Source of the DNA: Escherichia coli O127:H6 str. E2348/69 | GTDB taxonomy: Bacteria > Pseudomonadota > Gammaproteobacteria > Enterobacterales > Enterobacteriaceae | NCBI RefSeq assembly: GCF_000026545.1 | Contig: NC_011601.1 | Length of the DNA stretch: 64,000 nucleotides | Strand: one strand, 5' to 3' | Shown: piece after piece, positions 42,766-43,169 of the stretch | Numbering within the stretch: position 1 is the first letter of the stretch | Layout: each line of letters opens with the position of its first letter | The notes under the pieces: generated by a model | The model's database searches: none | The model's input: only the letters and a program-made list of their open reading frames with translations | Told to the model about the DNA's origin: nothing | Translations under genes and position numbers: made by a program

Positions 42766-42872
42766 TATTCTTCCCTCACGGTGGTGAGTTATTGTGACCC
42801 AGAAAATTTTCCAGAATGCTGCAAACGTCTCTGCGAGACAAAGCCATCATAAAAAACAGGGAGATATGCTTT

Positions 42873-42886
42873 TTGATAGGAATCAA
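42873..42886. promoter_or_regulatory. FNR-type box upstream of yhjA
   Basis: ttgataggaatcaa matches TTGAT-N4-ATCAA exactly, about 110 bp upstream of the yhjA start. Confidence 0.6.
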
Positions 42887-43169
42887 TCAATTACATGAAT
42901 ATAAACTATCAATAAGATAGCCAGTGCCTATTATCCAGCTCAGGAATGGCATATCATGATTGCGGCGAGAGCAGGATTGAATGTTCTGAAAATGAAAAAC
43001 AACACGAAATCCGTATTTTTATAAATTCCATTGATATTAGTGCGTTATATTTTTTGGCAGGTTAATAAACGTGATCCACCGCACGCTTTGTCGCCCACCA
43101 GGCGGAGCGAATGACTACCCTTAAAGAAAAGCCCGATAATTAGCGACGAATTTCGGAGGTCGGATCCTT

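Follow-up and report, generated by a model that had tools for sequence, protein, structure and literature searches.

A perfect FNR core and an adjoining OxyR-type site upstream of the cytochrome c peroxidase gene ccp (yhjA) of Escherichia coli

The divergent genes ccp (yhjA) and treF are separated by a 404-bp, AT-rich spacer (GC ~39%) that holds a palindrome of the FNR type, which raises the question of whether this palindrome is an operator for the peroxidase gene and, if so, whether FNR is the only regulator to act there. We analysed this locus in a 64-kb stretch of DNA (the window) from a B2-type (E2348/69-like) E. coli strain. The spacer boundaries are correct as given in the original prediction, since ORFs on opposite strands flank it (Table 1), and the three CxxCH haem motifs of Ccp (residues 59, 207 and 351) bear out the description of its product as a tri-haem peroxidase. 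The spacer is 100% identical in many E. coli chromosomes, where the flanking ORFs are likewise annotated ccp and treF. We found no NarL/NarP heptamers within the spacer and no credible small ORF (only unsupported frames of 21-39 aa), nor did it contain a known RNA family, the sole Rfam match being to a snoRNA model (E = 0.57) inside treF. On the basis of the sequence, conservation and geometry described below, of near-identity to the K-12 promoter and of the FNR and OxyR dependence reported in the literature, we consider it very probable that ccp/yhjA has a co-dependent (AND-gate) sigma-70 promoter and that the palindrome serves as its FNR operator.

Table 1. Features of the ccp-treF region (positions in the window)
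Feature	Positions	Strand	Basis and remarks
FNR site TTGATAGGAATCAA, core TTGAT-N4-ATCAA	42873..42886	.	Pattern search, conservation, identical 14-mer in Myers 2013 Table S6
OxyR-type site ATAGgcactggCTATcttattgATAGtttatatTCAT, ATAG-N7-CTAT-N7-ATAG-N7-tCAT	42895..42931	minus	Four N7-spaced tetrads, three perfect
-10 hexamer TATGAT, ccp promoter	42846..42851	minus	A2, A5 and T6 invariant in 16 species
Predicted transcription start, G	42839	minus	Predicted from its position 7 nt past the -10; ~3669262 in K-12 NC_000913.3
Hairpin CTCAC-cacc-GTGAG, 5' UTR	42775..42788	minus	3' arm overlaps first bases of Shine-Dalgarno
Shine-Dalgarno GAGGG	42777..42773	minus	Within the 74-nt ccp leader
IHF core-consensus match AATCAATCAATTA (consensus WATCAANNNNTTR)	42881..42893	plus	Overlaps one FNR half-site and the OxyR linker
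ccp (yhjA)	41368..42765	minus	465-aa ORF and annotation as cytochrome c peroxidase; regulated gene, tri-haem, membrane-anchored
treF (cytoplasmic trehalase)	43170..44819	plus	549-aa ORF and annotation; divergent neighbour

The FNR-type palindrome and related cores in the window

A pattern search of the window for TTGAT-N4-ATCAA returned the ccp site with all ten specified bases matching (10/10, no mismatches), exactly where a zero-mismatch match had been claimed. Within the context gctttTTGATAGGAATCAAtcaatt, the TTGAT half-site occupies 42873-42877, the AGGA spacer 42878-42881 and the ATCAA half-site 42882-42886; in the direction of ccp the 14-mer reads TTGATTCCTATCAA / TTGATtcctATCAA (42886..42873), and its centre at 42879.5 lies 114.5 bp upstream of the ccp ATG (42765). 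The window contains three perfect cores versus 0.08 expected from shuffles, and none of 100 shuffles gave three.

FNR and CRP recognise related palindromes of the same symmetry, and the two are discriminated by a T-T-G-A half-site for FNR and a G-T-G-A half-site for CRP. Both halves of the ccp palindrome carry T-T-G-A and are thus of the FNR type, reading TTGAT and not TGTGA; moreover, the discriminating T is invariant in 16 of 16 aligned species and the site scores above threshold on the FNR matrix. That the palindrome is a CRP site rather than an FNR site is therefore very unlikely. On the published FNR weight matrix (Myers et al. 2013, PMC3688515), the yhjA/treF site reached a PatSer score of 14.16, which is above threshold and mid-range, yfiD scoring as high as 17.25. 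The AGGA/TCCT spacer and the flanks account for the mid-range score, since the matrix prefers other bases in both places. The characterisation of the site as unusually perfect is thus apt for the ten core bases and does not extend to the full matrix score.

The other cores in the window concern different genes. The second perfect core, TTGATAAAAATCAA (23451..23464), is located in the chuA/chuT spacer (chuT ATG at 23572), upstream of the chuTWXY operon for anaerobic haem degradation (ChuW, ChuY). Mapping in S. dysenteriae put the shuT start 42 nt ahead of the ATG and the Fur box at +1 to +19; this start corresponds to G23530 of the window, which gives the chuT core a centre at -72.5 and hence a class I activator position. 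Four divergent E. coli chu alleles all carry this core unchanged, although the whole region is 94-100% identical among them, and our literature search found no paper linking chuT to FNR. In Citrobacter, Dryocola, Raoultella, Kluyvera and Klebsiella the receptor gene, hmuT and hutW are co-directional and have no intergenic promoter. The third perfect core, TTGATTGCCATCAA (3368..3381), lies in the yhiI-yhiY / yhiM spacer, ~89.5 bp upstream of yhiY, a small minus-strand gene (3172..3285); the 1 kb around this core is fully covered in 1122 of 5426 E. coli genomes (about a fifth), and it is absent from the K-12 list of predicted FNR sites. Finally, a one-mismatch site, ATGATAAAAATCAA (32013..32026), upstream of gadE corresponds to K-12 position 3656458 and is FNR-bound by ChIP-seq (Myers 2013, Table S6). 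An imperfect site is thus bound, whereas the same technique shows no binding at the perfect ccp site, at a distance of 10.9 kb.

The OxyR-type site, the ccp promoter and their conservation

Using as criterion four ATAG/CTAT tetrads at 10-bp intervals (ATAGnnnnnnnCTAT-N7-ATAGnnnnnnnCTAT), we located an OxyR-type site adjoining the FNR site, 8 bp upstream of it, with its centre at ~-74 and its span from about -92 to -56 relative to the predicted start. Of 16 specified bases it matches 14, and the 64-kb window holds no other match with two or fewer mismatches, where 0.01 would be expected. The linker between the two sites (gtaattga, 42887..42894) is exactly 8 bp long in 33 of 36 Enterobacterales loci, and the 19-bp linker of Providencia burhodogranariea amounts to 8 bp plus an 11-bp insertion, i.e. 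one helical turn. As judged from these sequences, the 8-bp linker and its 8+11 variant suggest a face-of-helix dependence, or stereospecific OxyR-FNR interplay. The original prediction had overlooked this OxyR half of the switch, and its "anaerobic induction" alone understates the logic of the promoter.

Downstream of the FNR site, the -10 hexamer follows after 21 bp (21-23 bp across loci) and a G is near-invariant at the predicted +1 (at least 90% of the sequences in the 16-species alignment). From the conserved -10 we infer a start that would place the FNR centre at -40.5, a class II activator position (site centre 41.5 ± 4 bp ahead of the start), and the geometry of the -10 is predicted to be compatible with class II activation. 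Partridge et al. reportedly also placed the FNR site of yhjA at -40.5. The ccp promoter has no recognisable -35 hexamer, and the FNR site overlaps the -35 region. Another candidate promoter on the ccp strand, ATGATA-16-GATAAT (42957..42930), was rejected: it scores 9/12, such matches are no more numerous than in shuffles, its -10 runs into the first OxyR tetrad, and the FNR site would fall downstream of the start that it implies. Within the leader, the stem of the hairpin is identical in Escherichia, Citrobacter and Pluralibacter while its loop varies (CACC, AACG, TACT or TTCA); no compensatory changes were seen in the stem among these three genera, and the whole 5' UTR does not fold better than shuffles (z = -0.37). 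The hairpin may have an effect on ccp through translation or stability.

To what extent this arrangement is shared was determined with a Ccp protein scan of representative bacterial genomes, which gave 41 loci, and with an alignment of 16 species (49% mean column identity). Nearly all Enterobacterales orthologues of ccp have an FNR-type site with at most two mismatches 86-122 bp ahead of the gene, among them those of Escherichia, Citrobacter, Providencia, Trabulsiella, Hafnia, Enterobacillus, Buttiauxella, Pluralibacter and an Enterobacteriaceae MAG; in Yersinia the distance is ~158 bp, counted from the start of the alignment (the protein match begins at query residue 11) and not from the start codon. 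Twenty-four loci have a perfect core, and the N4 is TCCT, TCTT, ACTT, AATT, GAAT, AAAA or ACCT. The 23 invariant columns of the alignment fall on the OxyR tetrads and their centre (9), the FNR half-sites (7, TTGA....CAA), the -10 (3, nAnnAT), the Shine-Dalgarno (1) and the ATG; the tetrad bases are invariant or nearly so in the 16 species, and the N4 spacer of the FNR site varies freely. A scripted scan recovered the entire module, i.e. OxyR site (37 bp), 8-bp linker, FNR site (14 bp), 21-23 bp and -10, in 33 of 36 loci, and found it absent upstream of the distant Ccp homologues of Saezia, Lachnospiraceae and Chloracidobacterium. This pattern is a textbook phylogenetic footprint of a composite promoter and shows the half-sites and the distance to the -10 to be under selection.

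The same data bear on whether the palindrome could be a functionless product of chance in AT-rich intergenic DNA, as perfect cores occur within K-12 genes too, many of them unbound. However, a 64-kb stretch is expected to hold only 0.08 perfect sites, at least nine genera share invariant half-sites amid diverging spacer and flanks, the spacing relative to the OxyR site and the -10 is fixed, and FNR dependence has been published. We therefore give a chance origin practically no credence: the conservation pattern effectively refutes it, and, with its retention across genera and its fixed spacing to the -10, we take the ccp palindrome to be functional. From the OxyR site to the -10, the K-12 promoter differs from that of the window by two substitutions, both outside the motifs, and because the promoters are near-identical, experiments in K-12 transfer to E2348/69.

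Two of the groups whose loci have no such module were also compared at the protein level. The Ccp homologue of Saezia sanguinis, a betaproteobacterium, is 73% identical to the E. coli protein and is encoded without the FNR/OxyR module, and the homologues in Lachnospiraceae MAGs show 41-42% identity. These comparisons suggest that the tri-haem peroxidase may possibly have spread horizontally without the enterobacterial promoter.

Published regulation and occupancy of the ccp site

The ccp FNR site and its regulation are already known, and the reading of the raw sequence had picked out a correct, already published operator. Later papers cite Partridge et al. 2007 for the activation of yhjA both by FNR, under anaerobiosis, and by OxyR, and state that this dual regulation confines yhjA expression to conditions of low oxygen plus peroxide. 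Similarly, reviews from the Imlay laboratory list ccp as a hypoxia-induced member of the OxyR regulon whose product lets H2O2 serve as terminal electron acceptor in the absence of oxygen and nitrate. The statement that the site belongs to a known regulatory class is thus borne out both by the control by FNR and OxyR published in 2007 and by the entry of the identical 14-mer, TTGATAGGAATCAA, at K-12 position 3667319 ("yhjA/treF") in Table S6 of Myers et al. 2013 (PMC3688515).

Taken together with the site geometry, these reports lead us to propose the following mechanism. Under anoxia, a [4Fe-4S] FNR dimer would bind TTGAT-N4-ATCAA centred ~40.5 bp upstream of the start, where it would replace the -35 element and contact RNA polymerase as a class II activator, the exact start (-40.5) and the protein contacts being predicted. 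Oxidised OxyR would bind the adjoining four-tetrad site (about -92 to -56) as the second required input, such that strong ccp transcription would need both the absence of O2 and the presence of H2O2. An AND gate of this kind suits a peroxidase whose role is to pass respiratory electrons to H2O2 in the absence of oxygen.

Occupancy of the site in vivo has been reported in conflicting ways. Lemmens et al. 2009 predicted both yhjA and treF as FNR targets, treF with high confidence, and ChIP-qPCR showed 11 of 11 tested targets to be bound by FNR in vivo, the DNA upstream of yhjA and treF included. Conversely, no FNR ChIP-seq peak was detected at the yhjA/treF site in anaerobic glucose minimal medium, and the site was classed as "silent" (Myers et al. 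2013). Published FNR occupancy data are therefore in conflict, being positive by ChIP-qPCR and negative by ChIP-seq. Myers et al. 2013 found prior evidence of FNR regulation for only 5 of 124 silent sites, yhjA not being among the five, a count that overlooks the yhjA report of 2007 (ChIP-qPCR binding dates from 2009). Their Table S12 gives an aerobic-versus-anaerobic ratio of 0.50 for yhjA in wild-type cells without added H2O2, which, with the +O2/-O2 definition of Table S11, reads as ~2-fold higher expression anaerobically. The supplements of the second genome-scale FNR study (Federowicz et al. 2014) do not mention yhjA. Anaerobic induction through FNR, as originally predicted, is thus supported by the FNR-type site, the literature and the conservation, while the prediction omitted the OxyR input and ChIP-seq recorded no FNR peak. 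The simplest reading of the conflict is that, with OxyR in its reduced form for want of H2O2, the promoter would be barely active and FNR occupancy low or poorly cross-linked, and that ChIP-qPCR, done in richer medium, would be more sensitive.

A further reading, which would refine the proposed mechanism and which we regard as possible but doubtful, is that H-NS and/or IHF conditionally mask the site during ordinary anaerobic growth and that oxidised OxyR opens the promoter for FNR, in which case OxyR would act ahead of FNR occupancy and not in parallel with it. ChIP-chip enrichment of H-NS and IHF overlies the yhjA/treF site (Myers et al. 2013), with K-12 H-NS regions at 3661953-3667384 (anaerobic) and 3661345-3668418 (aerobic) and an IHF region at 3667035-3667586 that covers the spacer. 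Masking would be in keeping with a perfect core that lacks an FNR ChIP-seq peak beneath this enrichment and with the AT-richness of the spacer (~39% GC), and an IHF core match overlaps an FNR half-site; the rigid 8-bp linker and its 8+11 bp variant also suggest a stereospecific interplay. Yet ChIP-qPCR detected FNR at the site in vivo without peroxide treatment, and yhjA appears ~2-fold up anaerobically in the wild type without H2O2. Nor is H-NS alone the mask, as there is still no peak after deletion of hns and stpA: the FNR peak table for delta-hns/delta-stpA cells (Myers et al. 2013) has no entry starting 3665-3668. As for IHF, the motif by itself is weak evidence and we rejected its statistical significance, since its count is no greater than chance (3 core matches in the window versus 2.8 expected), and beyond three genera it is not conserved (it is retained in Escherichia, Citrobacter and Pluralibacter only). 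Somewhat less likely still, in our estimation, is the stronger version in which the two sites together make up a single stereospecific composite element and FNR can occupy its perfect but otherwise masked site only with the help of oxidised OxyR. If true, this would be an AND gate of a peroxide and an oxygen sensor at the level of occupancy, mechanistically distinct, and it would explain how a consensus site can be "silent" in anaerobic ChIP-seq.

We also considered that the site controls treF in addition to, or instead of, ccp. The high-confidence prediction of treF as an FNR target and the positive ChIP-qPCR of its upstream region would favour this, as would the 2-fold higher treF expression anaerobically, which was seen only in delta-hns/delta-stpA cells (Myers et al. 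2013). However, the ChIP-qPCR amplicon cannot resolve treF from yhjA, and the distance from the FNR centre is 290.5 bp to the treF ATG and ~270 bp to the one match resembling a promoter in its vicinity, far beyond class I and class II distances. By contrast, the distance to ccp is fixed across genera whatever the upstream neighbour. Control of treF from this site is consequently improbable, and the co-dependent ccp promoter remains our preferred assignment.

Relation to known FNR and OxyR promoters

With FNR and OxyR both as inputs, the ccp promoter would be a switch for H2O2 respiration by enteric bacteria at oxic/anoxic interfaces, for example at the gut epithelium. To the published operator, our analysis adds the companion OxyR site, the conservation of a fixed-spacing module from Escherichia to Yersinia and the conflict in published occupancy; it also illustrates that a perfect core need be neither the top-scoring nor a reliably ChIP-detected FNR site.

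The closest known system is the K-12 yhjA (ccp) promoter (Partridge, Poole and Green 2007, Microbiology 153:1499; used by Khademian and Imlay 2017), which is the same locus and whose FNR core, OxyR tetrads and -10 are identical to those of the window. FNR-activated promoters in general cluster at -40.5 and -41.5, with narG, dmsA and nirB at -41.5 and yfiD, focA, pykA and nikA at -40.5. Like these class II promoters, ccp carries TTGAT-N4-ATCAA over the -35 region in place of a -35 hexamer, with a predicted centre at -40.5; unlike them, its site shows no detectable occupancy in anaerobic ChIP-seq and it requires OxyR too. Classical OxyR promoters have their OxyR site directly against the -35 region, and RNA polymerase is the only partner of OxyR there, whereas at ccp FNR would take the polymerase-proximal position with OxyR further upstream (about -92 to -56). 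The ATAG-N7-CTAT-N7-ATAG-N7-CTAT architecture itself is that of katG, ahpC, oxyS and dps, and the literature places ccp in the same H2O2-inducible OxyR regulon. Finally, nirB and nrfA, where FNR acts with NarL/NarP and is antagonised by IHF and Fis, resemble ccp in combining FNR at the class II position, which is predicted for ccp, with an upstream, signal-specific activator and with nucleoid proteins over the promoter, but the second input at ccp is peroxide, sensed by OxyR, and not nitrate or nitrite.
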